From: Candidatus Latescibacterota bacterium
GTDB lineage: Bacteria > Latescibacterota > UBA2968 > UBA8231
Length of the DNA: 64,000 nt
Direction: 5' to 3'
Assembly: GCA_965242865.1 (NCBI GenBank)
Contig: CBDETK010000013.1
Location: 2,464,001 to 2,528,000, forward strand
In this document: piece after piece, positions 40,257 to 61,787 of the stretch
Layout of the letters: every line of letters begins with the position of its first letter
Position numbering within the stretch: position 1 is the first letter of the stretch
Program-made: the position numbers and the translations under genes
Notes under the pieces: model-generated
Database searches by the model: none
Seen by the model: the letters and a program-made list of their open reading frames with translations, nothing else
Told to the model about the DNA's origin: nothing

Positions 40257-40293
40257 GGAGTCTTTCGCTCTCTTTGAAAGGGAAATATCCTTA

Positions 40294-44435: not shown

Positions 44436-44449
44436 GGCCGGTCAGCCGC
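44388..44449 (+). repeat. 62-bp direct repeat, left island boundary
   Basis: GTGGCCATTGCCCTAATATCCAAGTCGGTGACCCAGTTGCACTATTGAGGCCGGTCAGCCGC, identical at 61726-61787. Confidence 0.97.
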
Positions 44450-44478
44450 ACGGATTTACATAGATGGAGCGTGAATTG

Positions 44479-46143
44479 ATGACAACCAACAGTCCTGTTC
44501 TCATTTCTTGGGTGGCCGTGAATAATGATCCCTACGAGCCAAATAAGGGTAGCCTACTTGCCCCCGGCCCTACGCTCACCCTCCTTTTCGACGAGAATTC
44601 GCCGTACAAAGACTCGGTACGAGATGTGGTGCTTCTCCGCAGAGAAGAGGCCGGCCACGGCGGCGATAGAGAGCGCCGCGCTACGGAAGAGCTAGAAAAA
44701 GCCATCCGCGAGCACCGTTCGGATACCAAGATACGAGTAGAGCTCTGGAAATCAGAGGATCCTACTGATCACCATGCTATTCTCGAATTCTTGCGTAAGC
44801 TGATGCCGAAAATTCGGAACAGCTACCCAGCGCGTGAACTCGTGATCCACGTAAGCCCCGGAACCCCTTCCATGCAGACCATCTGGTTCCTGATGGGAAC
44901 GACTGGCCTCATCGAAGCCCCATTCCAATTGGTCAAATCGTATCGAGAACGCGAGCGCCGAGGCCGTCGTTCCGTCGTGCCAGTCGAGCTCAACATAGAG
45001 ACCTTTTACAAAGCGTACAGGGCAGCGGAGCCTCGCCAAGTCGCCTCTGAGGAACAAGGTCTCCTTTGGGATCCCAAGGACCTCCGCACCGAGGTCATGC
45101 AACGCCTATTCGCCGAAGCGCGCCGGTTCGCCCAGATCAAGGTGCCGGTGCTGCTGTTGGGGGAACGGGGGACTGGAAAAACGACGCTCGCTCGTTGGCT
45201 GCGGATCAACAGCCCCTTTCGAAACAAGAATAGTGACCAAGGGTGGCCCGCCGTAGCCTGTGGCCAATACACATCCGAGATTCTCCGGTCCGAGCTTTTC
45301 GGATACAAAAGAGGGGCCTTCACGGGTGCCCATAAGGATACGGACGGTCTTCTTGTAAAGGCCGATGGGGATACGCTCTTTCTCGATGAGATCGGGGACT
45401 TGAGCAGGGACAACCAACGTCGGCTCATCAAGGCACTTGAAGAGAAGACCTATTACCCAATTGGGGACACCAAACCGCGAAAGAGCGATTTCCGATTACT
45501 GGCCGCCACCAACCTTGAGCAGGACGAGTTGCACAAGCGGCTCGACCCCGACTTCTTCGACCGCATCAGTTATCTCACTTTACGCCTACCGCCTCTACGC
45601 GAAATCGCAGACGAGTTGCACTGGCTCTGGCCTCGTGCGTATCAGAGCGCAATAACACGCGCTGGCGCGGACAAGCAACGAGCGCAGTTCGCGCAAAGCC
45701 ATCACGACCACATCGTGGCCAAGCTCAAACGACATCCGCTACCGGGAAACATGCGCGACCTCTTCCGCGTGGCCTATCGCATTCTAGCGGCGAGGAACGA
45801 CGCCGACGAGCCGCTCGCGCCAGCGGACGCAGTCGCCTACGGCCTAGAGGCACTAAGTGGTTTCGCTACGTCATCCTCCGAGGGGAGTATCTCGCAGTCC
45901 GTCGCCCGCGCCTTTGCAGATAAAGTACCGCTCAATGCTCTAGTTGAAGAAGGGCCTCTCGACACAAAAGCGGTTGAACGCGATCTGAAACAGTACCTCG
46001 CGGACGAAATTCGCCGCATCGCAAAAGATACCGAGCGACCCATCGATCAATTGTGCGATCAAACGGACCGAACCTTGCGGAGTTGGTCAAAGCCTAAAGG
46101 GAAAATTTCTTCCGAGTCGCGGAATAATAAATCCGAAAAATAG
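44479..46143 (+). CDS. Sigma54-dependent activator, RtcR-like, with N-terminal CARF-like sensor
   Basis: ISWVAVNNDP...IHVSPGTPSMQTIW (CARF-like), GERGTGKT, SELFGYKRGAFTGA, LFLDEIGD, FFDRI, PGNMRDL, C-terminal HTH. Alternative start at 44464. Confidence 0.88.
   Translation: MTTNSPVLISWVAVNNDPYEPNKGSLLAPGPTLTLLFDENSPYKDSVRDVVLLRREEAGHGGDRERRATEELEKAIREHRSDTKIRVELWKSEDPTDHHAILEFLRKLMPKIRNSYPARELVIHVSPGTPSMQTIWFLMGTTGLIEAPFQLVKSYRERERRGRRSVVPVELNIETFYKAYRAAEPRQVASEEQGLLWDPKDLRTEVMQRLFAEARRFAQIKVPVLLLGERGTGKTTLARWLRINSPFRNKNSDQGWPAVACGQYTSEILRSELFGYKRGAFTGAHKDTDGLLVKADGDTLFLDEIGDLSRDNQRRLIKALEEKTYYPIGDTKPRKSDFRLLAATNLEQDELHKRLDPDFFDRISYLTLRLPPLREIADELHWLWPRAYQSAITRAGADKQRAQFAQSHHDHIVAKLKRHPLPGNMRDLFRVAYRILAARNDADEPLAPADAVAYGLEALSGFATSSSEGSISQSVARAFADKVPLNALVEEGPLDTKAVERDLKQYLADEIRRIAKDTERPIDQLCDQTDRTLRSWSKPKGKISSESRNNKSEK
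46099..46135. promoter_or_regulatory. Two 16-bp palindromic candidate enhancer (UAS) sites
   Basis: GGGAA-N6-TTCCG (46099-46114) and CGGAA-N6-ATCCG (46120-46135), 21 bp centre to centre. Confidence 0.6.
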
Positions 46144-46203
46144 CAATGGGGCCAGCGTTCAAAGCGGGTTGATACGGACGGAAAAAATAAAAAAGCCTTT
46201 TGT

Positions 46204-46216
46204 TTTCAATAGGTTG
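46204..46216 (+). promoter_or_regulatory. IHF-like binding site
   Basis: TTTCAATAGGTTG (one mismatch to WATCAANNNNTTR), preceded by an A-tract and lying between the UAS and the sigma54 box. Confidence 0.55.
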
Positions 46217-46246
46217 TGCTCAGAGGCAACTTCCGTCCGCGCCCTG

Positions 46247-46263
46247 TCGGCACGGAAATAGCA
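46247..46263 (+). promoter_or_regulatory. Sigma54 -24/-12 promoter
   Basis: TCGGCACGGAAATAGCA: GG(46249-50)-N10-GC(46261-62), directly downstream of a GAFTGA activator gene. Confidence 0.8.
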
Positions 46264-46315
46264 TTATAGATGGCAAACGCAAGCGGAATTAGCCGCCAAA
46301 GCAAGGAGCCATCAG

Positions 46316-46639
46316 ATGAGTCATAACGATGCACGCGAGCAGCAACGCCAGATCATCACGACCCATGCCCAGAAGCGGATGACGGGCCGCCGAATTTCCG
46401 AGACAGCCCTTTCGGCGGTGATAGATTATGGGCGGGTAGTCTATACGCGCGGTGCTAAAATCTACGTGATCGGCCGCAAGGAAGTAACAACATTCCTCCG
46501 CAAAGGTGTTGAATTAGCAGACTTTGAGGGCATCCACGTCGTGTGCAGCCCCGATGGAGCTATCCTGACCACGTATCGGAATCGCAACCTCCGAGGACTG
46601 CGCCCGCGAGGTCGCCGATTCCGCCAGCAGAACCTATAA
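46316..46639 (+). CDS. DUF4258-family small basic protein (RelE-like fold)
   Basis: ITTHAQKRMTGRRISE...VIDYG...VVCSPDGAILTTYR; AAGGAG RBS. Confidence 0.75.
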   Translation: MSHNDAREQQRQIITTHAQKRMTGRRISETALSAVIDYGRVVYTRGAKIYVIGRKEVTTFLRKGVELADFEGIHVVCSPDGAILTTYRNRNLRGLRPRGRRFRQQNL

Positions 46640-46663
46640 ACCTCAACGCAAAAGGAGAGGAAA

Positions 46664-47320
46664 ATGAGCGAACTCAAAAACTTTACCGTAAACAAGCCCC
46701 GCCCCCTTCCGGTGGTTCTCCTCGCGGATGTCAGCGGGAGCATGGCCTCCGAAGGGAAGATCGACGCCCTGAACCAGTCGGTGAAGGAGATGGTTTCCAC
46801 GTTTGCCGACGAGGATGACCTGCGCGCCGAGATCCACCTCTGCGTGATCACCTTCGGCGGCGAGGCGAAAGCCCTCATCCCGCTGCAACCGGCGGCGGCG
46901 GTGGAATGGGTCGATATGAGGGCTGATGGCCATACGCCGCTCGGCGGGGCGATGGCGATCGCCGCGGATATCATCGACAATCGCGCGCAGATCCCGAGCC
47001 GCTCCTATCGTCCCACGATCATCCTCGTGTCCGACGGGATGCCCAACGACGAGTGGGAACCGAGCTTGAAACGCCTGACGACCGAAGGCCGTGCAGCCAA
47101 GGCCGACCGGATCGCGCTGGCCATTGGTAGCGACGCGGACGAGGAGATGCTGAAACGCTTCCTCAACGATCCCGAAAAGCGCGTCTATTACGCCGAAGAT
47201 GCGCGGCGCATCAAGGAGTTCTTCCAATTCGTTACGATGTCGGTGACCCAACGCTCGCGGAGTGCGAATCCGAATCAAGTTCCTCAGAGCGGGAGCCCCT
47301 TCGGCATGGAGGATTTTTAG
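46664..47320 (+). CDS. TerY-like vWA domain protein
   Basis: RPLPVVLLADVSGSM (MIDAS), ITFG, GHTPLG, YRPTIILVSDGMPND. Confidence 0.92.
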   Translation: MSELKNFTVNKPRPLPVVLLADVSGSMASEGKIDALNQSVKEMVSTFADEDDLRAEIHLCVITFGGEAKALIPLQPAAAVEWVDMRADGHTPLGGAMAIAADIIDNRAQIPSRSYRPTIILVSDGMPNDEWEPSLKRLTTEGRAAKADRIALAIGSDADEEMLKRFLNDPEKRVYYAEDARRIKEFFQFVTMSVTQRSRSANPNQVPQSGSPFGMEDF

Positions 47321-47326
47321 ACGGCA

Positions 47327-48097
47327 ATGGGGGATTTTCCGCAAAACTGGCACTACTTCGGGGCTTCTGTGCGAGGCCCCGCGCATGTGCGTAGCGGCAC
47401 GCTCAATCAAGACGCTTGGCGCGGAGGCCAGCTTCGCAGCGGAGCGGCCATTGCGGTATGCGACGGTTTGGGGAGTAGGCCGCACGCCCGGCGGGGTGCT
47501 CGGGAAGCGTGTCGAGCGGTTTTTTCCGCGGCGCGCCAGTGGTCCGCGGTTCCCGCAGCTCCTATTGAAATCCTTCTGCGATTGATCCACGCGATATGGT
47601 CTTTGCGCGTGTATCCTTACGCCGAGGCCGATTGCGCGACGACCTGTTTGTTCGCGGTTGCGGGTAGCGATGGCCGGCTCCACGTGGCCCAGTTAGGCGA
47701 TGGCCTGTCGTTGGTGATGGACGACAGGGGCCTGCGGACGACAGCGCGAGCCGAGGACGACTTCGTCAACGAGACCACCGGCTTGGGTATTGCCAGACAG
47801 CTTTCGGAGTGGGATACGTTTGAGTGCGATCAATCCGCTGAGACCGCGGTACTGTTGGCGACGGATGGCATCGCCGACGATCTCGATAGCACTCGCCTCG
47901 GCGAGTTCGTCCACTTCGTTCGCTCCACGTACTGCCCGCTCGCCCCGGCAGAGCGGTGGCAACGGGTGGCAAAGGACTTGAGAAACTGGCCTACGCCCTA
48001 TCACAGCGACGACAAGACCTTGGCGTTTTTGTGGCGCGGGATGGGGTTAGCCACAAAAAGCACAAAAAGCACAAAAGGCGATCAGCTCCACTGCTGA
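47327..48097 (+). CDS. PP2C-family Ser/Thr phosphatase (TerY-P triad)
   Basis: GASVRGPAH, NQDA, VCDGLGS, GDG, ATDG, DDKT. Confidence 0.92.
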   Translation: MGDFPQNWHYFGASVRGPAHVRSGTLNQDAWRGGQLRSGAAIAVCDGLGSRPHARRGAREACRAVFSAARQWSAVPAAPIEILLRLIHAIWSLRVYPYAEADCATTCLFAVAGSDGRLHVAQLGDGLSLVMDDRGLRTTARAEDDFVNETTGLGIARQLSEWDTFECDQSAETAVLLATDGIADDLDSTRLGEFVHFVRSTYCPLAPAERWQRVAKDLRNWPTPYHSDDKTLAFLWRGMGLATKSTKSTKGDQLHC

Positions 48098-48121
48098 CCG
48101 CAGAGTACTGAGAGACAAGAG

Positions 48122-49588
48122 ATGACTGATTATCCAAAAGATGTCGTTGACGAGCGTGGGAATGTGCATGTGCTCAAAGAGATGCTCGGAGAAGGCGGAC
48201 AAGGCATTGTCTTTGCCACGACCAATCCCGACATCGCGGTAAAGCTGATTGCGGGCGGCAGCGAACAAGCGAAAAGCGAACGGAAGGAGACATTGCTGGA
48301 GCGGCTGACACGCGGATCTGGGGCACCGCTAAAAAAAGGGAATGCGGAGCACGACAAACTGCGTACCCGGCTGGAAACGGTCCGAACCCTTCCGCACCCC
48401 GACGACCTGCACTTGGCCGAACCTTTGGCGATGCTGCGAGAGCATGTCGGCTACACCATGCGCCTGCTGCGCGACATGGTGCTCATGCGAACGCTCATCC
48501 TGCCGCCTGAGACTGAAAATATCGCGGCAGAATATCTCGCTACTGGTGGCTTGCGCCGGCGTCTGCGCCTACTCGCCAAGACGGCCGAGACCCTCGCTCG
48601 TCTGCACTCGATTCCGTTGGTCTATGCCGATGTTTCGCCGAATAATGTGTTTGTTTCGGCCAGCGTTGAAGCCAGTGAGGTTTGGCTCATAGACGCCGAC
48701 AATCTCCACTTCCAGTCCGCGCCGGGGCCGCAGGTGTACACCCCGGGCTTTGGTGCGCCCGAAATCGTGGCGGGGCGCGCCCCGGTATCTACGCTTTCGG
48801 ATGGGTACGCCTTTGCAGTTTTGGCCTTCTATGTCCTCGCTCAAATTCATCCGTTTTTGGGAAACTTGGTTGAGGAAGGCGGCTGGGAAGAAAGTGTTGA
48901 TCTTGAGGAGCAAGCCTACGCCGGCAAATTGCCTTGGGTGGAAGACGAAGACGACGATAGCAATTGGTCGGACGCGGGAATACCGAGAGAATTGGTGCTT
49001 ACCCCGCGTCTGACAAAGCTCTTTCAGCAGACCTTTGGGGCGGGTCGTCAAGACGCCGCAAGCCGTCCGAGTATGCTCGAATGGGCCGAGGTGCTACACC
49101 AGTGTGCAGACTGGACTGTCGCCTGCGAAGATTGTGGCTCGACGTTCTACGTTCCAAAAAAAGAATGCCCATGGTGTGCCAGTAGCCCGTCTGCCCAATT
49201 TCTCTATGGCAAATTCTATGTCTGGGATCCCGAACTTGACGCGGAGAGCTACGACGCGGTATTGGCTGGCCGGCCGGTGTGGCACCTCTGCATGGACCGC
49301 AATAAAGAAATGGCTATTGCCCTACACGCTGCCGAGCCAAGCCTTTTGAGAGATGGCGACCCCCCGGTTATGACGGTAGAAGTGAAACGCCGTGCGATCC
49401 GATTGACGCCGCACGGCGATAGGGTGGTGTACGCATGCCTACCGCGAGAAGGGCGCACCGAGGTGATCGATACGGCCAAAGACCTGCCGTTGCCAAGCCG
49501 CGGTAAAGAGTGGCTCCTACATTTCGGTTCACCCGAACAGATTCACCGAGTGGCGTATTTCACCCTTATCGAGAGCGACCGCACATGA
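48122..49588 (+). CDS. Ser/Thr protein kinase (TerY-P triad) with C-terminal Zn ribbon
   Basis: GEGGQG, AVK, YADVSPNN, IDADN, GAPE; CEDC...CPWC. Confidence 0.92.
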   Translation: MTDYPKDVVDERGNVHVLKEMLGEGGQGIVFATTNPDIAVKLIAGGSEQAKSERKETLLERLTRGSGAPLKKGNAEHDKLRTRLETVRTLPHPDDLHLAEPLAMLREHVGYTMRLLRDMVLMRTLILPPETENIAAEYLATGGLRRRLRLLAKTAETLARLHSIPLVYADVSPNNVFVSASVEASEVWLIDADNLHFQSAPGPQVYTPGFGAPEIVAGRAPVSTLSDGYAFAVLAFYVLAQIHPFLGNLVEEGGWEESVDLEEQAYAGKLPWVEDEDDDSNWSDAGIPRELVLTPRLTKLFQQTFGAGRQDAASRPSMLEWAEVLHQCADWTVACEDCGSTFYVPKKECPWCASSPSAQFLYGKFYVWDPELDAESYDAVLAGRPVWHLCMDRNKEMAIALHAAEPSLLRDGDPPVMTVEVKRRAIRLTPHGDRVVYACLPREGRTEVIDTAKDLPLPSRGKEWLLHFGSPEQIHRVAYFTLIESDRT

Positions 49589-52500
49589 AGCCGAGTCAAC
49601 TCAAATACGGCTCTGTGGAGCACATCCGCGTTCGGCGTGTCAGTTCTGATCCGCCATTGAGCAAGGGAGAAGAAACCGATCTCAGATGGAGCGAGGAGGC
49701 GCGGGCCTATCTGCTGCGTGGGGCCAAGGGGGTGGTCCACATCGAACCGGCGAGCCGCGCCGGCGAGGATACGCTGCACGAAATCTGCGTTCGCAATCTG
49801 ACCCGCGTGGTCTGGATCGCCGAGATACAGGACGAAGAAATTCTCATTCAAGCCCACACTTTTCAGCTTGGGCTACGGCTGGGAATACGAATCGGTGTTG
49901 ACGAACAGGCTGTCGAGAAGGCACAAAGGCTCAATCGGCGGAACAGGACGCCCAAGGATCTGGTGGCGTGGCTGGAGGATCAATGCCTGCTTCCGGCCGG
50001 ACCCAGTGGCGAGGGCCGTGCGTTTCTTTCGGCTGGCCGGGAAATGAGTCAAGAGACCCCGGAAGCGTTCGCGCTTCATGGTCACTCCGTCAGGGTACAT
50101 GTAAAGCGAGTGCCTTCGCCCACGGGTGAGGGGGAAGTGTTCCTCGTAGATCGGATAGTGCGCTCAGGGGGTGCGTCCCCTCGCCATCCCATCGCGCATG
50201 TCGAGGGGAATATCCAGTTCACCGAAGCGACGGTGGAGGCGTGGGCGCGTGGCGAGGGGTTAGGGGCACTCCAGCAACTCGTTGACGACGATAAGAGTTT
50301 TTTGAAGATCTGGAATGAGTACGGCGATCTCGAAGAAGACAGCATCCTCAACGCAGCACGCGCCATTGGCGGCATTGCCTACCGAGGGTGGGAGCGAGGT
50401 GGCGACGGAGAGGTAGAGTTTGATGTGGGAGGCGACTCTAAAGCCGCCGAGAAGTTGGCCCGGTTGGACCCCGGCGAATCAATGGATGTTGCGAAAGATG
50501 TGCCTGCAATCCTATTGGATGAGAATCTCACTTGGGCTGAGTTCGGGAAGTCGAAACGCGAGCAGCGTCCCTTCCAAGGCGAAATCGTCGAGAGACCCCA
50601 TAGACAAAGAAAAACGGTCGTGTTGCGCCCCACGTCAGATGACGAAGACCCACCTCAAGAGGGATTCTTGTTTCCTGCCATACAGGGAGATACCCGTCGC
50701 TTAGAGCGGCGGCGAGACGCAGAGGAGGAAATTCGTACTTTGCAATGCCGTCTCCCCATTTCTCACTTGCTCGTCGGCGCACGAGTTCCCGTGCCGCGCC
50801 GCAGGGAACTACCCGCCCTGACCGCGAAGGTGCGCGAGAAGCTCTTTGGCGACCATCCGCCAACGCCCCAGCAAGAGGAAGCCATTCGGGTGGCTCTCAA
50901 TACCCCGGATATAGCTGTTATTCAAGGGCCGCCCGGAACCGGGAAGACCAAGGTCATCGAGGCCATTGTCGAACGGCTCAACGAAGAGTTGGACACCTCG
51001 GGAGCAGGTGCCGGTCAGATATTGGTAACGGGGTTCCAGCACGACGCCGTGGAAAACGCCCTCGCTCGCATTGATGTCCACCGCTTGCCGGCGATCAAGT
51101 TCGGCCGCCGGTCGGGGCGAGACGAGTTCGGAGAGAGCGAAAATCGGATCGACCAATGGGTTCAGGAACGCGCAGGGCATATTCGGGAAAAGATGCCAGA
51201 AGTAGAACGAAATAGTCTCCATCGCTGGCTGGCGTCCCAACGCGAAAGCTACGTACTCGCACCCGGCTTGCCCTCGGCCACCGTGCGCCTTCTTCGGCAG
51301 GTCGTTGAGCAGACCTGTGGGGAAGTCTCGTCGCATCTATTGGACCGCATCAGCGATTTGGCCGATGAAATCGAGAGGAATGAAGCATCTCGCGGCGAAG
51401 CGAACCCAGAAAGAAAGGCTCTCGAACGGGCGGTCCGGGCAATGCGCGTCGAGCCGGTCGGCTTTGCCGATGATGGCCCGCTCAATGCCCGCCGGTTGTT
51501 CGCACGGCTTGGGCGTCAACGCATCATCAAGGTAGAATCGAAAGTCCTCGCCATGATTGAACGAGCGGCCGATTGGCTACAGCCCGATCCACCGGATTTC
51601 CTCGGCGATCTCGCACAAGAGAGAAGCCGCCTTCTCCTCTCGCTCGTACCGGACCGGGCCGCGCCCGTGTCGGCGGTGACGACGCGCAAAGATGTGGTAG
51701 AATTGCTCGCGGCGGCTTGTGCGGAGCTCGAGGAGCGGTATCGCATGTCCCGCGATGCCCCCGACGCTGCGGTCGCCGACTACCTCTACCAGTTAGAGAA
51801 CAATCCACATTCGGTACGCCGAGCCGTGATCGAATACGTTCCTGTTTTTGGGGCAACGTGCCAGCAGGCGGCCAGCAAGGTCATCGCCGACATCAAGGCG
51901 AATCTAGAATACGACACCGTACTCATCGACGAGGCTGCCCGATCCAACCCTCTCGACCTGTTTATTCCCATGGTGCAAGCGCGGCGGCGGGTGATTCTCG
52001 TCGGCGACCATCGACAACTGCCGCACATCATCGATCACCAGCTAGAAAAGGAAATTGAGCAGGCTGTGGCACGCGATAAATCGGTCGCGGAGGAGACAAA
52101 GGAGTTCATCAAACAAAGCCTCTTTGAATACTTATTTAAGAAACTGGGACCGGAATCGGCCACCGACCCGCGCCGCGTCGTTACGCTCAACAAACAGTTC
52201 CGAATGCACCCCGTACTGGGGGATTTTGTGAGCAAGGAGTTTTACGAGGTCCACGATGAACCTTCTATTGAAGCGGGATTACCGGCGGCGACCTTTGCCC
52301 ACGTACTTCCTAAATACGAGGATCGGGTTGCGGCTTGGTTCGATGTGCCGCCCAAACTCGGGCGAGAACAGCAGGGACAGAGCAAGTCGCGGCCATCTGA
52401 GGCCGAAGCCCTAGCCCGCGAACTCAAGCGGCTGCTCGACGCTCCTGCTGCCAAGGGCCTCACCTTTGGCTGTATCACGTTCTACTCCGCTCAAGTCGAG

Positions 52501-52881
52501 TTCATTAAAAACGAGCTAAAGAAACACGGAGTCGTTGATGGCAACGGCGAAGTCGCGTCTGATTACCGCGATGGACAGGTCGTGGAGCGGCTCCGGATCG
52601 GAACGGTAGATGCCTTTCAGGGCAAAGAGTTTGATGTGGTGCTGCTGTCGGTCGTGCGATCAAACACACACCGCGACCACGACGAACGCGCCCGGCGCAA
52701 GCGATACGGCCACCTAATGTCGCCAAATCGACTGTGCGTGAGCATGAGCCGCCAGAAACGCCTGCTGATCGTCTTTGGTGATCCAACATTGCTCAAAGCA
52801 CCCAACGCGGGAGAAGCGATCGGCCCATTGGTGCGCTTCCGACAGGAGCTTTGTGGAGGTGAACATGGCCGCATCGTTTGA
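49585..52881 (+). CDS. SF1 Upf1/DNA2-like helicase (CoCoNuT CnuH-like)
   Basis: QGPPGTGKT, IDEAAR, VGDHRQL, QFRMHP, TVDAFQGKE, NRLCVSMSRQ; ATG overlaps the kinase stop (ATGA). Confidence 0.92.
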   Translation: MKPSQLKYGSVEHIRVRRVSSDPPLSKGEETDLRWSEEARAYLLRGAKGVVHIEPASRAGEDTLHEICVRNLTRVVWIAEIQDEEILIQAHTFQLGLRLGIRIGVDEQAVEKAQRLNRRNRTPKDLVAWLEDQCLLPAGPSGEGRAFLSAGREMSQETPEAFALHGHSVRVHVKRVPSPTGEGEVFLVDRIVRSGGASPRHPIAHVEGNIQFTEATVEAWARGEGLGALQQLVDDDKSFLKIWNEYGDLEEDSILNAARAIGGIAYRGWERGGDGEVEFDVGGDSKAAEKLARLDPGESMDVAKDVPAILLDENLTWAEFGKSKREQRPFQGEIVERPHRQRKTVVLRPTSDDEDPPQEGFLFPAIQGDTRRLERRRDAEEEIRTLQCRLPISHLLVGARVPVPRRRELPALTAKVREKLFGDHPPTPQQEEAIRVALNTPDIAVIQGPPGTGKTKVIEAIVERLNEELDTSGAGAGQILVTGFQHDAVENALARIDVHRLPAIKFGRRSGRDEFGESENRIDQWVQERAGHIREKMPEVERNSLHRWLASQRESYVLAPGLPSATVRLLRQVVEQTCGEVSSHLLDRISDLADEIERNEASRGEANPERKALERAVRAMRVEPVGFADDGPLNARRLFARLGRQRIIKVESKVLAMIERAADWLQPDPPDFLGDLAQERSRLLLSLVPDRAAPVSAVTTRKDVVELLAAACAELEERYRMSRDAPDAAVADYLYQLENNPHSVRRAVIEYVPVFGATCQQAASKVIADIKANLEYDTVLIDEAARSNPLDLFIPMVQARRRVILVGDHRQLPHIIDHQLEKEIEQAVARDKSVAEETKEFIKQSLFEYLFKKLGPESATDPRRVVTLNKQFRMHPVLGDFVSKEFYEVHDEPSIEAGLPAATFAHVLPKYEDRVAAWFDVPPKLGREQQGQSKSRPSEAEALARELKRLLDAPAAKGLTFGCITFYSAQVEFIKNELKKHGVVDGNGEVASDYRDGQVVERLRIGTVDAFQGKEFDVVLLSVVRSNTHRDHDERARRKRYGHLMSPNRLCVSMSRQKRLLIVFGDPTLLKAPNAGEAIGPLVRFRQELCGGEHGRIV

Positions 52882-55129: not shown

Positions 55130-55148
55130 ACCAATAGGGAGTTGTCAC

Positions 55149-57509
55149 ATGAGTAAGAGACAGAAGGACAAGCCATCGCAACCGACCCAAGAATCGCCTG
55201 CTGAGTTGCAACGCTGCCAGCAAGAACTCAAGACCGCCCAACAAGAGCTCCAGAAATTCCAAGATCGGGAGGGTGAGTTCCAAAAGCGGGCGGAGGACTT
55301 GGATCGCCGTGAGGCTGCGGTGAAGAAGGACAAACAAGACCTGAAAAAGCTCGGAGGCGAAGTTTCCAAAAGGCAGTCCGCAATGACTGCTCGCGAGGGC
55401 GAGGTTGCGGAGAGGGAGCGCGTCGTCAGCAAGCGAGAGATGGAGGCCGATGCCGGGTTTGAATGCCGAAACCGCAAATCCCTGAAAAAGCTCGGAGACG
55501 AATACGCGGCTCTGCACGGGCAGTTGGAAGAAATGCGGACCACCGCTTTCGAGAAGTTGAATGCGGAACACGAGAAGCGGAAAGCGGCGCAGGATGAGGC
55601 ATTGGACCGAATCCGAGACCAAGCTCAAGCTCGCTTGGACGCCGAGATCGCTGAGAGGCGGAAGCGCTTTGACGAGGAGATCGCCCAACAGCGGGACGAC
55701 ATTGAGCAGCAAAGGGCGTCGGTTGAACAAATCGAAAAGCAACAGGCCGAGCGAGAAAACCAATTCATCCTTCGGGAGCGCAAGGTCAATTGCGACGAAG
55801 CGATCCTCCGCGAAGACCGGGAGAATCTGAAGGCTACCATTGAGAGCCGCGTTGACGAGCGCGTAGCCGATTTCAGACGTCAACTAGAGCAAAAGGACGG
55901 ACGCATTGAACGCCTCTCGGAGGAGCGAGGCCGCTTTGAACAGAAGGTCAATGCGTCCGAAGACTGGCGGCGGCGGTTCGGCCACAAGGAACCGGAAGAA
56001 TGGCTCGACGATTTCAACAAATTGGAGCAAGACCGCGACCGGCTCCGCGACGAACGCGACGAGCGTCCCTCGCTCGAAGATGGCGAGCGGCTGATGGGTC
56101 TTGAGGAAGAGCGACGCCAATGGGCACAGAAACGCACGGAGATGGCCAGTGAGTTGGCTGAATTGCGCGCCCGTGAGAGCGACTGGCTGGTAGCCGTGGA
56201 CGAACGCGAGCGGCTGAAAGATCAGAAAGAGGTGGCCGAACAAAGGCGAGAAACCTTGCAAGCAGAGATGGAGAAACTGCGCGAGGAAGTGAGCAGGCTA
56301 CGCAGTTTGTACGAGCAACCCAAGGAACGGGAAGCGCGGGTAGGCGTTATCGAGCAGCCTCGGTTTGAAAAGAAAGACCTGCCCCAAGATGTCGTTGACG
56401 GTATTGCCGAAAAGGATTGGCTCGAGGGCATCCACGAATGCTGCGAAGAATCTGGACTCGTCTTTCCGCGCCGATTGTTGTATGCGTTTCACACGTCCCT
56501 CAAGACAGCGGACTGGACTCCGCTGACCGTGTTGGGCGGTGTCAGCGGCACGGGGAAATCCGAATTGCCGAGGCTCTACGCACGGTTTGGCGGCCTTGCC
56601 TTTGAGCCGTTGTCCGTGCAGCCGAACTGGGATAGCCCGCAGTCGATGTTTGGCTTCTTCAATTCGGTAGATAATCGCTTTAATGCCACTCCGCTCTTGC
56701 GAGCACTGGTGCAGAGTCAGCGGGACCCGGGGATCTATGAGGATGGCATGGAGGACCGGCTCCTGCTCGTGCTCCTCGACGAGATGAATCTGTCCCATGT
56801 CGAACTCTACTTCAGCGATCTCCTGAGCAAGCTCGAACTCAGGCGCGGCGAGACAAACGGGGTGAACATTGAAGTCGATCTGGGGGCCGGCTTGGAAGAG
56901 TACCAAGTTCCCCTCGGGCGCAATGTTTTGTGGGTCGGCACCATGAACGAGGACGAAACTACCAAGACTCTTTCCGACAAGGTGCTCGACCGTGCAAACC
57001 AGATCGGTTTCCCGCGACCGCAAGAGCTTAAGCGGCGTCGGGAAGCCAAGCTCGCTGATCCCGGCCCCATGTTGGAATGGAAGCAGTGGAACAAGTGGCT
57101 TTGCAAGAAGAGCGATCTGTCGGAAGAAGAGGTCGGGAAATACAAAACGGCTGTTGAGGAGATCAGCCGATCCTTGGAGGAAGCGGGTCGTGCTCTCGGG
57201 CACCGAGTCTGGCAGGCCATTGAAAGTTATATGGCGAACTATCCCGGCGTCCGGGAATCCCAGACAGAGGACGAGCGGACCCAAGCACTGCGGGACGCCT
57301 TTGAAGACGCGCTCGTTCACAAAGTGATGCCCAAACTGCGAGGTATTGAGACGTCGGGCGCAGCGCGAAGTAAGTGCCTCGATCCGATTGGAGAGTTGCT
57401 TTCGGGCAGCGAGCTCGGCCTTCAGTTGGCCGAGGATTTTGAGTTGGCCAGTTCGGTCGGCTACGCATTCGTGTGGCGCAGCGCGAAATACTTGGAGGCC
57501 GATCAGTGA
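55149..57509 (+). CDS. McrB-family AAA+ GTPase with long N-terminal coiled coil (CnuB-like)
   Basis: Roughly 400 aa of E/R/Q/K-rich coiled coil, GVSGTGKS, VQPNWDSP, LLDEMNLS, GTMNEDE (NxD signature), SDKVLDR. Confidence 0.9.
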   Translation: MSKRQKDKPSQPTQESPAELQRCQQELKTAQQELQKFQDREGEFQKRAEDLDRREAAVKKDKQDLKKLGGEVSKRQSAMTAREGEVAERERVVSKREMEADAGFECRNRKSLKKLGDEYAALHGQLEEMRTTAFEKLNAEHEKRKAAQDEALDRIRDQAQARLDAEIAERRKRFDEEIAQQRDDIEQQRASVEQIEKQQAERENQFILRERKVNCDEAILREDRENLKATIESRVDERVADFRRQLEQKDGRIERLSEERGRFEQKVNASEDWRRRFGHKEPEEWLDDFNKLEQDRDRLRDERDERPSLEDGERLMGLEEERRQWAQKRTEMASELAELRARESDWLVAVDERERLKDQKEVAEQRRETLQAEMEKLREEVSRLRSLYEQPKEREARVGVIEQPRFEKKDLPQDVVDGIAEKDWLEGIHECCEESGLVFPRRLLYAFHTSLKTADWTPLTVLGGVSGTGKSELPRLYARFGGLAFEPLSVQPNWDSPQSMFGFFNSVDNRFNATPLLRALVQSQRDPGIYEDGMEDRLLLVLLDEMNLSHVELYFSDLLSKLELRRGETNGVNIEVDLGAGLEEYQVPLGRNVLWVGTMNEDETTKTLSDKVLDRANQIGFPRPQELKRRREAKLADPGPMLEWKQWNKWLCKKSDLSEEEVGKYKTAVEEISRSLEEAGRALGHRVWQAIESYMANYPGVRESQTEDERTQALRDAFEDALVHKVMPKLRGIETSGAARSKCLDPIGELLSGSELGLQLAEDFELASSVGYAFVWRSAKYLEADQ

Positions 57510-60500
57510 GCGCGAAACGCAAAAAGAAGCGGGCCAAATCCAAAGCGGCGAAGTCCAGGGACGGCCGACAGCACAAAGAGCAACCGACCATACCTGAAAA
57601 GCACGACCCGCACGAAACGGTTGCTAAGGCCCCTGCCATGGAAATACCGCCCCTCGTTCCGCCATTTGACCAACTTGATCAGATAGCGGCGCGAGAAACG
57701 CCAGAAGTTGCCGGGGCTTGGTGGATCGCGCTTCAGGCCGCTCATCACGTGGTCGAGTGTGCGGCAAAGCGAGACCCTCACACCGGCGCGAGCCTTCCAC
57801 ATTCCCTCTACGAAGTACTGAAGGCGGTGGCCGATGCGACCAAGACCGGAACGCGCCCCATGCCCAACGGTGGCCTCCACCGCGCCTCGGTGCTGGCGTT
57901 TGAGCCATTGCGGGCGATTTTGCACCAGCCGAGAACGCGGCTCCTGCGGGAACACGCACAGCGACCGATTCACTCCATTCGAGAGATGGACACCCATTGT
58001 ATGGCTTGGCTGGCTCGGTTGCCGGGCCGAACCATACGCGAGAAACTGGCCGGGAAGCAACACGTGCTGTCAGTCGTCCGCCGCTTCACGCCAGACACGC
58101 CGGAAAACCGAGTTGCCAAGCGCGTCGCCGATCTCTTGATGAGGCAGCTCGATGGACGCTTCGCCCACGCGGCGGCCTACGATGAGGACGGCCCTTGCGA
58201 TGCCCAGCAGCGCGAGACTCTCGACTTCTGCCGCCGCTTTCTCCGCGACGAAAACTTTGCCCCGATTCCCCTCAGCGACATGCCCCGGCCAAACAACGCC
58301 TTGCTCAATGACCGCCATTACGCTCGCGTCTGGCGTGCATGGATGCTGTTGCACGAGGAAGAGGAGGCGTTGAGAGCTGCTTGGCCTTATGCAGAAGAAT
58401 GCTTTAGGACCGCGGCCTTTTGGGCTGTTGCCGGTGAGATTGTCGCTAGATACGGTGCCCGCGTAGCCGAAGCATTGGCCGTGCCCGATGTAGAGATGGC
58501 CGACGGCCATAAGTGCGGTATTTGGAAGGACGAAGCAACCCCTATCACTGAAATAGACCTGCTCGTAACGGGCGATGACGACTCGCAAGCTGACCTAGAG
58601 GCCGCAGTGATCAGCGTTCGGCAAGTACGCGAGGGGGTTAGAATTGTGGAGAAGCGGCTGAGAACTCAGAAAAGTTCAAGAGGTCCCGCAGAAGGCTGCG
58701 TGAAATTGATCAACGACGATAAAAACTTCGGCTTCGTTCGCAGCGAAAGTGGAGAGGAGTACTACTTCGACCCTAAAACAGTCGGCGACAAAGGCACCTT
58801 CTCCGATCTTAGTACAGGCGATAGGGTTACGTTCACGCCAAGAAGACAAGGTACGGGTAAGAGCGTATCGGCTTGTAATGTGCGGCGGTATGAGACAGGC
58901 TTGCGCGTAGCTCACACTATCGAGAAGGGGGCAAAGACTTGGCGCGTTGCGTTTCACGATGATCCCAATCCGTCAGACTTTCAATGTCGTCGCGGTTTCC
59001 CCATTCACGCCACCCCAGACAATGGACAGCGAGCGGCCACCAAACGCTTCGCTTCGTTTTCCAGCCTTAAACATATCCTCGACTGGCGAGGATACGCCGA
59101 CATTGAGGGGTTGCGAGGTTTCGCCAAAGCTGCAACTCCTCCCCTCAACCTCAAATCGCCCCCGGCGTCAGACACGGAGAGGCCATCTTCGGCAATCGGC
59201 ATTGATCCGTTCGGCAGATGTGTGTTTGTAGGAACTAAAGAGGAAGCGTGGGCAACGGCGACCTTGCCTTATGCACTACGCCACGAATCGCAGTGGCAGG
59301 TCGGAACATCCCGTCGCCTTCCGAGTGTTGGCGAGGTATGGCCCTTGGATGTCGATTTAAGTACTCGCAATGCGGCTGACGAATCTACCGCTACTGCGAG
59401 TTGTCACCAAATTGTTAGAGCTCTTGCCCAAGAGGTGCGTGGACGGGAAGTATCCTTTGTCGTCCCCGATGGGCCGGACGAGTTTTCGCAGCAGACTTTA
59501 CGGGCGGCGATGTTGGGCGCGTTTCCGCGGAATAGGCCAATCGCCCGCAGTGTTGCCGCCGCCCTATCTTGGCAGCATCAAGGCAAGGTCAGGGATGGAG
59601 ACAAGGTACTCGTACTTTGTGCCGAGGCCGATGCTCTCTCGTTCAGCCTACTCGTGGCAAGACGAGATCGGCGTTTGGAGGAGAAACGCCCCGAAAGCAA
59701 GGGCATCTTTTGGGAGCGTCGGCCTGCCTTGCCCGCAGACGAGTACGGAAAAGGTTTCGGCTTGCGCGATATTTGGCGCGACTATGCTCGTCGTTTGTTC
59801 AACCTAAAGGATCGGGATGAGAGCGACCGAGAAAAGATCATCTCGTACCTCGTGGATAGCGGCCTTCTGCAAGAGGCCGTTGAAAGCGGCTCCCCGCGCT
59901 GGGTCCGCGACCGAGATCAGTGGCTCGTCCTCGAACACTCGCCACAGCTTTGGGCCGACGTCTTGAAGCGTTGGCGAAAGCGATTCAACTCGGCACTGAA
60001 ATCTGGTCTAAGAGAGCTCATTTCAAAGGCCGTGGGAAGGCGATGCCACCTCTTGCTCGTTGGTCCTCCCTTCAACGAAAAGGCCGTATTTGACCACATC
60101 AAGAACGCTCTCTCGCAACAAGTAGGCCGCGGCAAACCCATCTCTCTCAAACAGGTTGCCTACATTGCGTCCGAGAAGGGTGCTCTTGCTAGCGGTGCAG
60201 CCGAGTTCACGGAGCGATCTTGTGCGGGGCTACCGGCGTGGAAGGATTGGCTGCCCGATCTTTTTTTGGAGATTATCCGAGACGGGCTTTACGACGAAGT
60301 GGAGATCATGCGAGACAAGGCGGTAGATGCCACACTTGGTGCGCTTCATCGAGAAAAGGTCGCTGAGGAATTGGTCCTACCGGCCGGGCAGACTCACTAC
60401 ACTTTACCGCTCGTTGCCGGTCGCGCAAATCGCCGCCCCGTACCGGCTGACTTGTGTCTCGATTCCAACCATTTCCCGTTGCAACAGGATGTTCGAGTTC

Positions 60501-61675
60501 GGCTTGAACTCAGCTACCAATATGGCGTCGAGAATGGATACGAAATCACGGTCTTTCCCGTAGAGCCGGAGACGGCCCCGTTCAGTGTGCTCAAGGGAAA
60601 ATGGATGAAATCGAACGAGGAGGACGGTAAGCTAACGGAGAAGCCTGTGCCGCCTTTTCGGAATCACATAAGACGAAAGGCCGCTGAATCAACCACCGAA
60701 TCAACCACTATAGCGGATATCCGAAGGGAAGTAGAGCGGTTGCTTTCGGGCGAGGCGAAAAACCCCGAGGGCACGATTGGGTGGCTGATACGGCAATTGC
60801 GAGACCAACGAGAGAAACGAGAGCAAGCGGCATTCGGGGGGTGGTGTGGGATGACCGTCCCGGAATACGACCATAGCGATCTTATGGAGGTAGCAGGTAG
60901 CTCAGTTCTTGTCGAGCTTTTGTTAGAAGTCGTCAACGATCACGACAGCCTTGGCGTCTCCCAAGATTTGGCAAAGGATATAAAAAAAGAAGCCATCCTA
61001 TTCTTGTGTACCCTTGGCGATCAAGTACCCAAAACCATTACCAAGAGCATCCGAACTAAACTCAAATCAGACAAACTCGAATCAGGTGAACCGCATCTCG
61101 CCAACGCAGCAGGTATTCTCCACCGAACGCAGTCGGAAGAACACTGGCTCGATCAACTTTGGAAAAAGGTCGTTACGCGCATAGAGCCTTACGAGAATCC
61201 ATGGCTTTACGGAGAGTCCATACGCGAGATTTCGCATACAGCTTGGGTTCTTCCTGACTTTCTTGAGGACTTCGTCAAGCGCAACCCCGACTTTGTGCAA
61301 AAGTCGTTTCGCATCATTGAGGACAGCGTCCGAGATGTTGTCTCCAAAGCGGCACAGGCCATGGAGCCAGATTCGGAGACAAAAATTTACGGAGGGCACA
61401 TTCGACGCTTCCAAGCCTGTTGCGAGTTGGTACTGGCACTGCTTCGGCTACCCGATACGCCACTCGTCGCTAACCCGTCCAGAATGTCACAATTAGCAAA
61501 GAGCATCCGACGCGCCGACTGCCTGATAACACACGCGGAGAAGTACAAAGTGCGTACTTCCTTATATTTTGAGTTGGACCAACCCGAAGATCTAGCCCGC
61601 GTGTCGGACCTTGCTTACGCCGCGAGCTACTATCTCATGGGACATGAGACAACAAACCTCGTCCGAATCGGCTGA
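57506..61675 (+). CDS. McrC-related DUF2357 + cold-shock OB + Hsp70-like + helical-repeat fusion (CnuCD-like)
   Basis: DTPENR and PNNALLNDRHYARVW (DUF2357); GCVKLINDDKNFGFV...YYF (CSD); AIGID...VVPDGPDEFSQQTLR...RSVAAAL...GAA (actin/Hsp70-like). GTG overlaps the upstream TGA. Confidence 0.78.
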   Translation: MSAKRKKKRAKSKAAKSRDGRQHKEQPTIPEKHDPHETVAKAPAMEIPPLVPPFDQLDQIAARETPEVAGAWWIALQAAHHVVECAAKRDPHTGASLPHSLYEVLKAVADATKTGTRPMPNGGLHRASVLAFEPLRAILHQPRTRLLREHAQRPIHSIREMDTHCMAWLARLPGRTIREKLAGKQHVLSVVRRFTPDTPENRVAKRVADLLMRQLDGRFAHAAAYDEDGPCDAQQRETLDFCRRFLRDENFAPIPLSDMPRPNNALLNDRHYARVWRAWMLLHEEEEALRAAWPYAEECFRTAAFWAVAGEIVARYGARVAEALAVPDVEMADGHKCGIWKDEATPITEIDLLVTGDDDSQADLEAAVISVRQVREGVRIVEKRLRTQKSSRGPAEGCVKLINDDKNFGFVRSESGEEYYFDPKTVGDKGTFSDLSTGDRVTFTPRRQGTGKSVSACNVRRYETGLRVAHTIEKGAKTWRVAFHDDPNPSDFQCRRGFPIHATPDNGQRAATKRFASFSSLKHILDWRGYADIEGLRGFAKAATPPLNLKSPPASDTERPSSAIGIDPFGRCVFVGTKEEAWATATLPYALRHESQWQVGTSRRLPSVGEVWPLDVDLSTRNAADESTATASCHQIVRALAQEVRGREVSFVVPDGPDEFSQQTLRAAMLGAFPRNRPIARSVAAALSWQHQGKVRDGDKVLVLCAEADALSFSLLVARRDRRLEEKRPESKGIFWERRPALPADEYGKGFGLRDIWRDYARRLFNLKDRDESDREKIISYLVDSGLLQEAVESGSPRWVRDRDQWLVLEHSPQLWADVLKRWRKRFNSALKSGLRELISKAVGRRCHLLLVGPPFNEKAVFDHIKNALSQQVGRGKPISLKQVAYIASEKGALASGAAEFTERSCAGLPAWKDWLPDLFLEIIRDGLYDEVEIMRDKAVDATLGALHREKVAEELVLPAGQTHYTLPLVAGRANRRPVPADLCLDSNHFPLQQDVRVRLELSYQYGVENGYEITVFPVEPETAPFSVLKGKWMKSNEEDGKLTEKPVPPFRNHIRRKAAESTTESTTIADIRREVERLLSGEAKNPEGTIGWLIRQLRDQREKREQAAFGGWCGMTVPEYDHSDLMEVAGSSVLVELLLEVVNDHDSLGVSQDLAKDIKKEAILFLCTLGDQVPKTITKSIRTKLKSDKLESGEPHLANAAGILHRTQSEEHWLDQLWKKVVTRIEPYENPWLYGESIREISHTAWVLPDFLEDFVKRNPDFVQKSFRIIEDSVRDVVSKAAQAMEPDSETKIYGGHIRRFQACCELVLALLRLPDTPLVANPSRMSQLAKSIRRADCLITHAEKYKVRTSLYFELDQPEDLARVSDLAYAASYYLMGHETTNLVRIG

Positions 61676-61725
61676 CTCGCGACTTTCTTGCCTCGTCCGG
61701 TTTGCCAGCAAAAGATGAAGGCTTG

Positions 61726-61787
61726 GTGGCCATTGCCCTAATATCCAAGTCGGTGACCCAGTTGCACTATTGAGGCCGGTCAGCCGC
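61726..61787 (+). repeat. 62-bp direct repeat, right island boundary
   Basis: Identical to 44388-44449; includes the stop codon of the convergent GNAT gene. Confidence 0.97.

Follow-up and report, generated by a model that had tools for sequence, protein, structure and literature searches.

Nine co-directional genes of a predicted Type III-A CoCoNuT

We analyzed a stretch of 64,000 nucleotides (nt) from a Candidatus Latescibacterota bacterium (GenBank assembly GCA_965242865.1, contig CBDETK010000013.1, positions 2,464,001 to 2,528,000), hereafter the window. In its list of open reading frames (ORFs), nine intact genes, g1 to g9, all lie on the plus strand and run in one direction from 44464 or 44479 to 61675. 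In order, they encode an RtcR-like activator (g1), a DUF4258 protein (g2), a TerY-P triad of a VWA protein, a PP2C phosphatase and a Ser/Thr kinase (g3–g5), a UPF1-like helicase (g6, CnuH), a winged helix-turn-helix (wHTH) protein with HEPN motifs (g7, CnuE), a coiled-coil McrB-like GTPase (g8, CnuB) and a fusion of DUF2357, cold-shock domain (CSD), Hsp70-like and helical parts (g9, CnuCD). An earlier annotation made from the sequence alone, hereafter the original prediction, had read these genes as an intact McrBC-derived system of the CoCoNuT (coiled-coil nuclease tandem) class with TerY-P and an RtcR-type CARF/sigma-54 activator, and this reading was upheld by family scans, PADLOC and the description of such systems by Bell et al. 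(2024, eLife 13:RP94800; PMC11090510). That paper defines CoCoNuTs and their types, with TerY-P, RtcR and BrnT-like genes as frequent additions, and our comparisons refer to its main text. The locus is very probably a complete Type III-A CoCoNuT in the sense of Bell et al., with an RtcR-like activator, a DUF4258 gene and TerY-P, and we regard as likely the fuller explanation that one complete system of this type is carried as an acquired 17.3-kb cassette in a Latescibacterota chromosome. The role predicted for the locus is anti-phage and RNA-targeting.

All nine co-oriented genes were found where the original prediction had placed them. At the likely starts used here (ATG 49585 for g6, ATG 52865 for g7 and GTG 57473 for g9), g5 and g6 overlap by 4 nt, g6 and g7 by 17 nt and g8 and g9 by 37 nt, while g7 and g8 are 19 nt apart, so that the last five genes do overlap or nearly abut; the longest-ORF starts of g6 (49510) and g7 (52775) are probably too early. 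The frames are all intact and of the same lengths as their orthologues, in agreement with the claim of an intact system. Furthermore, the order g3–g9 is kept in three other Latescibacterota genomes at 64–94% protein identity and in metagenome contigs with CnuB at 35–55% identity. Thus, the nine-gene arrangement is more than chance. The domains proposed for g1 to g6 (CARF-like GAFTGA activator, DUF4258, vWA, PP2C, kinase and Upf1-like helicase) were recovered by Pfam, PADLOC and motif reading, with PADLOC matches for g1 (RtcR_PspF1), g3 (TerY), g6 (MkoA) and g8 (PDC-M26A). Those proposed for g7 to g9 (wHTH-HEPN, coiled-coil NxD McrB-like protein and DUF2357-CSD-Hsp70-like fusion) were recovered by models, profiles and invariant motifs; Pfam alone is blind to HEPN, McrB and Hsp70 in these three genes, and models or profiles were required.

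CnuCD is a DUF2357–CSD–Hsp70-like fusion paired with a coiled-coil GTPase

CnuCD (57473–61675, plus strand) was characterized by Pfam, an AlphaFold2 (AF2) model, Foldseek and VIA structural comparison. Pfam places DUF2357 (PF09823) at residues 146–231 (E 2e-8, 34.2 bits against a cut-off of 23.3) and a CSD (PF00313) at residues 407–471 (1.5e-6), the latter also matching solved cold-shock proteins from 0.0047. Residues 560–1400 have 514 cluster representatives at E ≤0.001, mostly 1200–1450 residues long, and a 40-row alignment was used to model this region (pLDDT, for predicted local distance difference test, of 85.5; predicted template modeling score 0.87). An Hsp70-like nucleotide-binding and substrate-binding domain pair (NBD/SBD) spans residues ~569–1046: all 50 Foldseek rows shown were of the Hsp70 family, comprising chains of DnaK, BiP/GRP78, Hsc70, mortalin, Ssb and Hsp110/Sse1, with DnaK the best at E 7.2e-14 and probability 1.00. 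VIA aligned 423 residues with BiP (Z 21.5, root-mean-square deviation 4.7) over model residues 10–487, extending into the substrate-binding domain, and gave Z 21.3 for Ssz1 and 20.6 for Sse1, above actin, MreB and ParM at 14–19. The C-terminus (~1079–1399, model residues 520–840) is all-helical with high pLDDT, the fold lists being taken up by the Hsp70 part. DUF2357, the CSD, the Hsp70-like unit and the helical C-terminus thus cover most of CnuCD. At E values of up to 5, Pfam showed no nuclease family in it, and the fold model covers residues 560–1400 only.

CnuB (55149–57509, plus strand), characterized by profiles and motifs, combines an N-terminal coiled coil with a McrB-like AAA+ GTPase of the NxD type. 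Residues ~15–400 match SMC/Rad50, myosin, apolipoprotein and other coiled-coil chains, which identifies this part as a coiled coil. In the C-terminal half, the motifs read GVSGTGKS, DEMN and MNEDE, and the Walker A motif, D544-E545 (Walker B) and N600-E601-D602 are invariant in 17 sequences. The signature that would have read NxxD in a canonical McrB is therefore NED. This half is matched by 5570 of 8000 scored candidates at E ≤1e-5 and is 58–64% identical to proteins named from Thiocapsa, Burkholderia, Bacillus, Corallococcus and others. A language-model Atlas assigned the GTPase to its 'McrB family protein' cluster at 0.98 (227 of 256 features), and PADLOC matched CnuB to PDC-M26A at 7.9e-32. 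No DNA-binding specificity domain is present in the protein.

CnuE carries two HEPN motifs

CnuE (52865–55129, plus strand) was read from an AF2 model, VIA and motifs. We gathered 38 relatives and aligned 21, among which R488 and H493 of an RxxxxH motif (RDQFSH) are invariant and R722, G723 and H724 of a C-terminal RGH motif are conserved at 90% or more. Family scans gave only a weak wHTH match, and Foldseek with the whole model (pLDDT 84.1) returned no match at E ≤0.001. VIA, however, identified residues 45–115 as a MarR-type winged helix (Z 10.7, root-mean-square deviation 2.1, 70 aligned) and matched residues ~328–525 to the HEPN proteins 5yep_B (Z 9.4, 132 of 133 aligned), 1ufb_A (8.7), 1jog_A (8.5) and 2jpu (8.7) as well as to the HEPN-containing N-terminus of Roquin (4txa_A, Z 9.5). 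The HEPN motifs are the only recognizable nuclease motifs in the operon.

These features bear on the possibility that the locus performs modification-dependent DNA restriction of the canonical McrBC kind, with the other genes as accessories. CnuB and CnuCD descend from McrB and McrC, as their McrB-like features and DUF2357 indicate, and they resemble E. coli McrBC in pairing an AAA+ GTPase with a DUF2357 partner and in having an alignable Walker B and signature region. Moreover, CSDs can bind single-stranded DNA according to Bell et al., and a cryptic nuclease is possible in the first 559 residues of CnuCD, outside the fold model. In E. coli McrBC, however, the signature is NxxD, not NxD, and a DNA-reading N-terminal domain stands where CnuB has its coiled coil; the McrC homologue here has RNA-binding modules instead of a detected nuclease (as modeled over 560–1400), CnuB is without a specificity domain, and HEPN supplies the nuclease motifs. 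DNA restriction of this kind is consequently a very improbable reading of the locus, and the Type III-A CoCoNuT is preferred.

CnuE is predicted to dock on the helical insertion of CnuH

CnuH (49585–52881, plus strand) is a UPF1-like superfamily 1 helicase according to Pfam (AAA_11/AAA_12) and PADLOC (MkoA, 6.5e-91), and its best solved relatives are UPF1/NAM7, SMUBP-2 and SEN1, from 2.3e-18. A helical insertion of ~320 residues lies between the Walker A motif (residues 448–455, GPPGTGKT) and DEAA (782–785). The N-terminal region comprises ~420 residues; residues 1–438 have no Pfam match, and the only Atlas leads there, all below 0.9, point to the 1B domains of UPF1 and SMUBP-2; Bell et al. 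describe an SmpB-like OB fold and a RelE-like domain at the CnuH N-terminus in Type III-A.

AF2 multimer modeling by Bell et al. suggested that the wHTH of CnuE contacts the helical insertion of CnuH. We modeled the complex from CnuH 425–830 (39-row alignment) and CnuE 1–330 (21 rows) and obtained an interface score (ipSAE) of 0.62 (runs 0.55, 0.62 and 0.65) compared to 0.23 for the best control, so that the model passed its controls. In calibration, 58 of 80 solved complexes attained the mark used for this score, as did 2 of 110 mismatched pairs; these counts are approximate for this case since our own alignments were used. The runs share at least 45% of contacts, the partner pLDDT is at least 73, and the confident part of the modeled interface joins CnuH 499–501, 529–537 and 724–751 with CnuE 47–84 and 112, that is, with the winged helix. 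The model thus supports a predicted docking of the CnuE wHTH on the CnuH helical insertion.

The locus agrees with Type III-A and fails the Type II description

We compared the locus with the types defined by Bell et al. In their account, a Type II system has one HEPN domain in CnuE and a CnuC with an inactivated PD-(D/E)xK nuclease and a zinc ribbon, without CSD and without Hsp70. Type III-A has two HEPN domains in CnuE, the first with RxxxxH and the second with a shortened RxH near the C-terminus, a McrC homologue fused to an Hsp70-like NBD/SBD (CnuCD) that has a CSD outside the DUF2357 bundle and a HEAT-like helical C-terminus and has lost the PD-(D/E)xK nuclease, beta-sandwich and zinc ribbon, and a CnuB for which a C-terminal HTH is described. 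Their picture also includes overlapping frames, a TerY-P triad whose kinase has a zinc ribbon and, at the 5' end, RtcR-like CARF activators. The locus agrees with the Type III-A description on all features tested and fails that of Type II. It has the same gene order and all tested domains: the helicase with helical insertion, the wHTH-HEPN motifs, the coiled-coil NxD GTPase with a following E, the DUF2357–CSD–Hsp70-like–helical fusion, a single VWA with a perfect MIDAS (metal ion-dependent adhesion site), the PP2C, the zinc-ribbon kinase, and a co-directional upstream RtcR-like gene with a small, probably RelE/BrnT-like gene.

The original prediction had called the system "type-II-like". The helicase, the wHTH-HEPN protein, the coiled-coil NxD GTPase, TerY-P and an RtcR-like activator would also be found in a Type II or Type II-like CoCoNuT. 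However, the two HEPN motifs, the CSD and the Hsp70-like NBD/SBD are Type III-A features foreign to Type II, and the Hsp70-like region is present in 42 of 43 assessable relatives (see below). We therefore rejected the Type II assignment on these defining features and consider it hardly tenable; a McrC homologue fused to Hsp70 together with two HEPN motifs places the locus in Type III-A.

The architecture is already published, in 2024. Differences from the published account are that the kinase here has ~135 residues beyond its zinc ribbon, that no DNA restriction genes lie between activator and CoCoNuT, and that the host phylum, Latescibacterota, is unmentioned in the main text of Bell et al.; the terms Latescibacter, DUF4258, integrase and 'direct repeat' are likewise absent from that main text, whose supplementary lists may include such loci. 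Without a second VWA or an inserted ATPase, the locus is of the simple kind, unlike the 'extended' forms of their Figure 7. The text we consulted does not deal with the island ends, the promoter or the missing RtcB described below.

According to the text of a 2026 preprint available to us (bioRxiv 10.64898/2026.04.06.716636), a seven-gene Type II-like locus, Obs, protects Pseudomonas aeruginosa against two RNA phages and one DNA phage; among the literature searched, this is the only phage-protection data for the CoCoNuT class. The statement in the original prediction that CoCoNuTs are not mechanistically characterized stands for Type III-A in that literature. Type II systems, Obs included, resemble our locus in pairing a helicase with HEPN, in having a coiled-coil NxD GTPase and TerY-P, and in being often under RtcR control, whereas Type II CnuC keeps the inactivated PD-(D/E)xK and zinc ribbon without CSD/Hsp70, and Type II CnuE one HEPN.

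The TerY-P triad keeps its MIDAS motif and kinase catalytic residues

The VWA protein g3 (46664–47320, plus strand) is TerY-like according to Pfam (VWA, 3.5e-13) and PADLOC (TerY, 3e-6) and has a complete MIDAS, DVSGS..T91..D124 (DxSxS..T..D). It is followed by the PP2C phosphatase g4 (47327–48097, plus strand; Pfam PP2C_2, 9.9e-35) and by g5 (48122–49588, plus strand; Pfam Pkinase, 8.9e-9), a Ser/Thr kinase with a zinc ribbon formed by C335, C338, C349 and C352. In an alignment of 50 relatives, the catalytic residues K41, D170, N175 and D191 of g5 never vary, and each of the four zinc-ribbon cysteines (CxxC..CxxC) is present in 48–50. No Pfam family matches residues 337–488. The tail after the zinc ribbon comprises ~135 residues (353–488), and the relatives are 410–510 residues long, which makes the tail a variable part; the kinase described by Bell et al. 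ends in the zinc ribbon.

The triad of VWA, PP2C and Ser/Thr kinase is shared with stand-alone TerY-P modules. Such modules are reportedly defensive (Gao et al. 2020, as cited by Bell et al.). Their kinases end in an OB fold, as stated by Bell et al., whereas the kinase here has a zinc ribbon and a tail and sits inside a larger operon.

A sigma-54 type promoter lies between the activator and the DUF4258 gene

The activator g1 (44464 or 44479–46143, plus strand) is an enhancer-binding protein with a CARF domain, a sigma-54 AAA+ module and a helix-turn-helix (HTH), identified from PADLOC, Pfam and its motif. The PADLOC model RtcR_PspF1--CARF_AAA_HTH matches it over its full length (residues 9–543, 2.7e-154), Pfam Sigma54_activat matches at 4.8e-42, and GAFTGA is present in the translation. 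The Pfam RtcR and Csm6-CARF models fall just below their cut-offs, and the NCBIfam RtcR equivalog scores 203.6 bits, short of its cut-off of 650. Translation likely starts at ATG 44479, the second ATG of the frame, which has a GGAG 8 nt upstream. Among the enhancer-binding proteins of the genome, only g1 matches in the N-terminal (CARF) part; 14 others match in the AAA+ core only. The host genome also has rpoN.

We searched for sigma-54 sites with the pattern TGGCACG-N4-TTGCW at up to two mismatches. The 172-nt spacer between g1 and g2 has a single match, with two mismatches: the -24/-12 type promoter cGGCACGgaaaTaGCa at 46248–46263 (plus strand), which ends 52 nt before the g2 ATG at 46316. 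Over both strands of the whole window, the pattern gave 9 matches compared to 12.6 expected, and the chance of one such site on this strand of the spacer is ~0.02. A looser pattern, TGGCACN5TTGC at up to two mismatches, gave 82 matches against 75 expected and was uninformative. The promoter is found at the identical position in loci L001 and L003, while the rest of the spacer diverges, and the same spacer of the more distant loci L021, L024 and L099 holds sites with one mismatch; altogether, a sigma-54 promoter lies between activator and DUF4258 in 6 of 6 loci with a visible spacer. Thus, the DUF4258 gene is the first gene of the sigma-54 transcript. g1 has no sigma-54 site of its own. About 30 nt upstream of the promoter is an A/T-rich stretch, TTTCAATAGGTTG (46204–46216, plus strand), which is conserved in L001 and L003. 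It resembles a site for integration host factor (IHF), whose consensus we take to be WATCAANNNNTTR, and we offer it as a candidate IHF site by way of suggestion only. A perfect 9-nt inverted repeat (46175–46183 and 46231–46239), considered as a site for the activator, was discarded as it is not kept in L001.

The DUF4258 protein g2 (46316–46639, plus strand; Pfam DUF4258, 1.6e-7, 32 bits against a cut-off of 25) has nine invariant residues in 6 sequences: H17, R21, R25, R40, R54, K55, E56, Y87 and R88. Bell et al. describe 'BrnT-like RelE-family' genes directly upstream of CoCoNuTs and co-directional with them, and g2 is probably such a gene, judged by position and direction, the name DUF4258 being absent from their text.

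g1 can be compared with E. coli RtcR, which controls rtcBA. The two have in common the CARF–AAA+(GAFTGA)–HTH build and a sigma-54 promoter on the controlled operon. Here, however, the activator is co-directional with its target, the controlled genes are defense-like, and RtcB was not found in the genome.

The locus is the cargo of one insertion and is sporadically distributed

The nine genes are flanked by a perfect direct repeat of 62 bp. Its left copy (44388–44449) consists of the 3' end of a gene for a 656-residue protein (stop at 44435) plus 14 nt, and its right copy (61726–61787) overlaps the last 8 nt of a convergent GNAT gene (61780–62907, minus strand). The copies are identical at 62 of 62 positions by blastn, and the same sequence is single in the empty sites of congeners; it is built from 48 nt at the end of the 656-residue gene, a short spacer and the final 8 nt of the GNAT gene. 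g1 begins 14–29 nt inside the left boundary, and the discrete insert measures 17.3 kb and contains no recombinase. Among 11 congeneric loci in which the upstream gene is 93–95% identical, 8 are empty, with the GNAT gene directly next to it, G135 has the activator at this junction, and two carry a different insert of ~1.2 kb. Together, the repeats and empty sites show that the nine genes are exactly the cargo of one insertion. The target duplication is consistent with integration of a circular intermediate by recombination in the junction segment, as we infer from the arrangement of the repeats.

In another congener, G130, a direct repeat of 329 bp with 97.6% identity (L018 7924–8252 and L001 16549–16877), which includes a 249-nt GNAT fragment, borders the island. 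Set against the 62 bp in the window, this suggests that the original duplication was probably longer, its left side having been trimmed in the lineage of the window.

We next examined the distribution of the system. A scan of species-representative genomes with one protein identified three loci, all from Latescibacterota, with CnuB at 69–85% identity; all three keep g3–g9 and two keep g1–g2. Within the phylum, 33 of 168 genomes match CnuB somewhere, and it is full-length at 72% identity or more in only 4 of the 168, including that of the window; among the 30 other genomes of the genus, 2 have a full-length CnuB. The other 29 genomes of the phylum with a match have a protein of ~600 residues that matches the GTPase part of CnuB only, mostly at 31–35% identity, and that may belong to another NxD McrB-like system. 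The CnuB of G092, from another family of the phylum, is 85% identical to that of the window compared to 72% for the congeneric G135, and this closer match in a more distant host suggests transfer of the system within the phylum.

Gene context was also counted in metagenomes, for the best 80 of 430 stretches with CnuB relatives and only where a locus had enough flank. Downstream of CnuB, all 69 assessable loci have a DUF2357 gene and 42 of 43 an Hsp70-like region; upstream of it, CnuH and the kinase are each present in 50 of 50 loci and PP2C in 43 of 47. At least part of CnuE is recognizable before CnuB in 46 of 62 loci, a lower bound owing to divergence, and VWA in 20 of 41, where the flank often ends first. 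DUF4258 was found in 2 of 41 loci with full flank and in L021, the 10-kb flank mostly ending before the positions of g1 and g2. With a query of 80 residues, which makes for an insensitive test, tblastn detected the CSD in only 3 of 43 relatives.

These data bear on a second explanation, namely that the locus is a stress-induced module for RNA surveillance or ribosome rescue under RtcR-like control that clears damaged RNA or stalled ribosomes. The RtcR-like activator and the UPF1-like helicase would suit such a role, Hsp70-like and cold-shock domains are RNA- or ribosome-associated elsewhere (PMC11090510), and no phage test of a Type III-A system was found in the literature searched. However, full-length CnuB is sporadic, being confined to 4 of the phylum's 168 genomes and to 2 of 30 others of the genus; the locus is a discrete insert that is missing from 8 of 11 congeners, a closer copy is found in another family, and restriction-modification genes are nearby. 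This spread, the empty sites, the closer copy and the neighbors indicate accessory defense cargo and not housekeeping, and the Type II-like Obs locus protects against phages, as far as the preprint text cited above goes. We accordingly judge a surveillance or rescue module quite improbable and retain the reading as a Type III-A CoCoNuT with a predicted defense role.

Points that weigh against the Type III-A reading

A number of observations weigh against this reading or parts of it. The alignment of CnuB with E. coli McrB by hhalign, which places DEMN on DEIN and NED on NTAD, is weak (probability 8%, E 0.004); Pfam gave nothing for CnuB at E 0.01, the C-terminal half matching AAA_5 only at 0.21, and searches against solved structures, with the single sequence or a 17-row profile, returned coiled-coil proteins only. 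For CnuE, the HEPN-fold Z scores of 8.5–9.5 are inside the tool's caution range for common helical arrangements, and the fold of HEPN-1 is called because several HEPN entries agree and RxxxxH is invariant. The C-terminal helical domain with R722-G-H724 is a putative HEPN-2 by motif alone: it is absent from the Foldseek and VIA lists for whole CnuE, which were filled by other domains. Similarly, neither the single sequence nor a 6-row profile of g2 yielded a solved relative by sequence, and the label 'BrnT-like' comes from Bell et al. alone. The search for RtcB (PF01139) was negative in the host genome, which is 93.6% complete, while being positive in 10 of 14 control genomes. This makes the analogy with RtcR less secure with regard to the ligand, and together with the NCBIfam score of 203.6 bits against 650 it marks g1 as RtcR-like in build and not as the regulator of an RNA repair operon here. 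In a scan of 44000–62200, neither sigma-70 promoters (2, with 6.1 expected from shuffled sequence) nor terminators (18, with 21.8 expected) stood out, and no functional test of any Type III-A system was found in the literature searched.

Furthermore, in the G092 copy (L002/L019), activator and DUF4258 are missing from the adjacent 11 kb, which holds housekeeping genes (diacylglycerol kinase and adenylate kinase) instead, and PP2C is cut to the last 60 residues, 197–256. Either these parts are dispensable or this copy is decaying. The losses in G092 would also fit a silent or decaying passenger cassette in the window itself, as would the lack of an RNA run with the sequence of window positions 44400–54399 among 19 listed runs, which is a blank only. 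The nine frames of the window, however, are intact and of orthologue length, and their motifs and the promoter are conserved, and we regard a passenger cassette as highly unlikely. Separately, six runs, X1–X4 and X5–X6, contain at least half of the sampled words of 44400–54399, and X5 and X6 are labeled sponge metagenome.

Proposed working of the system

Starting from the Type III-A assignment, we propose the following chain of steps, which we hold tentatively and as an outline that may well prove wrong. It builds on the hypothesis of Bell et al., to which we add details of this locus. g1 is presumably made at a basal level, and its CARF domain would sense an infection or RNA-damage signal. 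Its AAA+/GAFTGA module would then open the promoter at 46248–46263 and drive g2–g9 as one transcript, an induction for which the promoter, the presence of rpoN and the tight or overlapping spacing are the basis. VWA, PP2C and kinase, in which MIDAS and catalytic residues are intact, may act as a phosphorylation switch on the effector and thereby set a second threshold, so that the system would be gated both by ligand and by phosphorylation, as the original prediction had also inferred.

On the effector side, CnuH would carry CnuE through the contact between wHTH and helical insertion and bring two putative HEPN RNase sites to RNA. The GTPase domains of CnuB may assemble into a McrB-like ring, carried on a long coiled coil, for which CnuCD would supply the McrC N-terminal activator domain, and the CSD and Hsp70-like unit in the place of the nuclease would bind RNA or ribosomes. 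The helicase-HEPN and GTPase-Hsp70/CSD pairs, linked by coiled coils, would find and cut RNA; either phage RNA would be cleaved, or host RNA would be, with arrest of growth.

A bolder version of this scheme is a self-amplifying and irreversible RNA-damage switch, in which the products of a toxin-like DUF4258 protein and of HEPN would re-trigger the system's own activator and lead to dormancy or death. RNase-toxin-like and HEPN enzymes leave 2',3'-cyclic phosphate ends, the ligand class of RtcR-type CARF domains. If this were true, the loop would not be resettable, as an RtcR-like sensor would be present without the RtcB ligase that repairs such ends. The idea of HEPN feedback was raised by Bell et al.; the possible additions from our locus are the lack of RtcB and the promoter-proximal putative toxin gene, which is conserved together with the promoter at all 6 visible spacers. 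We consider such a switch rather unlikely.

What the locus adds to the known picture

The picture published in 2024 is unchanged by this locus. New here are the promoter found in 6 of 6 spacers, rpoN without RtcB, the 62-bp repeat with empty sites, the G092 copy and the modeled CnuH–CnuE contact; of these, the promoter, the missing RtcB, the island ends and the interface are useful handles and not surprises. The range of the class is extended to Latescibacterota, a new phylum as far as the main text of Bell et al. goes, and an RtcR-like sensor is seen apart from RtcBA. CoCoNuTs of Type III-A occur widely, are large and have RNA as their predicted target. With a compact size of 17.3 kb, its own regulator and promoter, no inner restriction genes and base-exact ends, the locus is a practical unit to clone, and it offers a concrete promoter and a CnuH–CnuE interface for mutation.

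Neighboring genes and the insertion junction

The insert of ~1.2 kb at the junction of the 656-residue gene and the GNAT gene is found in L015/L101 (G145), in L016/L102 (G143) and in L003 16916–18088 (G135), where it adjoins the CoCoNuT island. It is flanked by duplicated 3' fragments of GNAT and encodes a protein of 337–394 residues without a Pfam family, which weakly matches the Rpn family (recombination-promoting nucleases/putative transposases) below threshold, at E 0.0035 and with 17 bits where 52 are required. We note, as a lead, that the junction may be a recombination hot spot.

Immediately upstream of the island, positions 40492–44435 (plus strand) encode a DUF6785/DUF6784 protein of 658 residues and, overlapping it, the 656-residue protein without a Pfam family, with a strong AT skew of -0.32. 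The 656-residue protein, the 3' end of whose gene is the insertion point of the island, has 8 matches in its own genome and 7–11 in each congener, and thus belongs to a multi-copy family. Farther upstream, positions 33333–40391 (minus strand) hold two large genes with a GC content of 0.49–0.56 compared to ~0.60 around them. They encode a Type IIG restriction-methyltransferase (PADLOC, 6.9e-298) and an SNF2 helicase, best matched to BrxHI (2e-112) and also to DrmD, and form a second acquired defense block 4–11 kb upstream of the island, on the opposite strand and with two core genes between.

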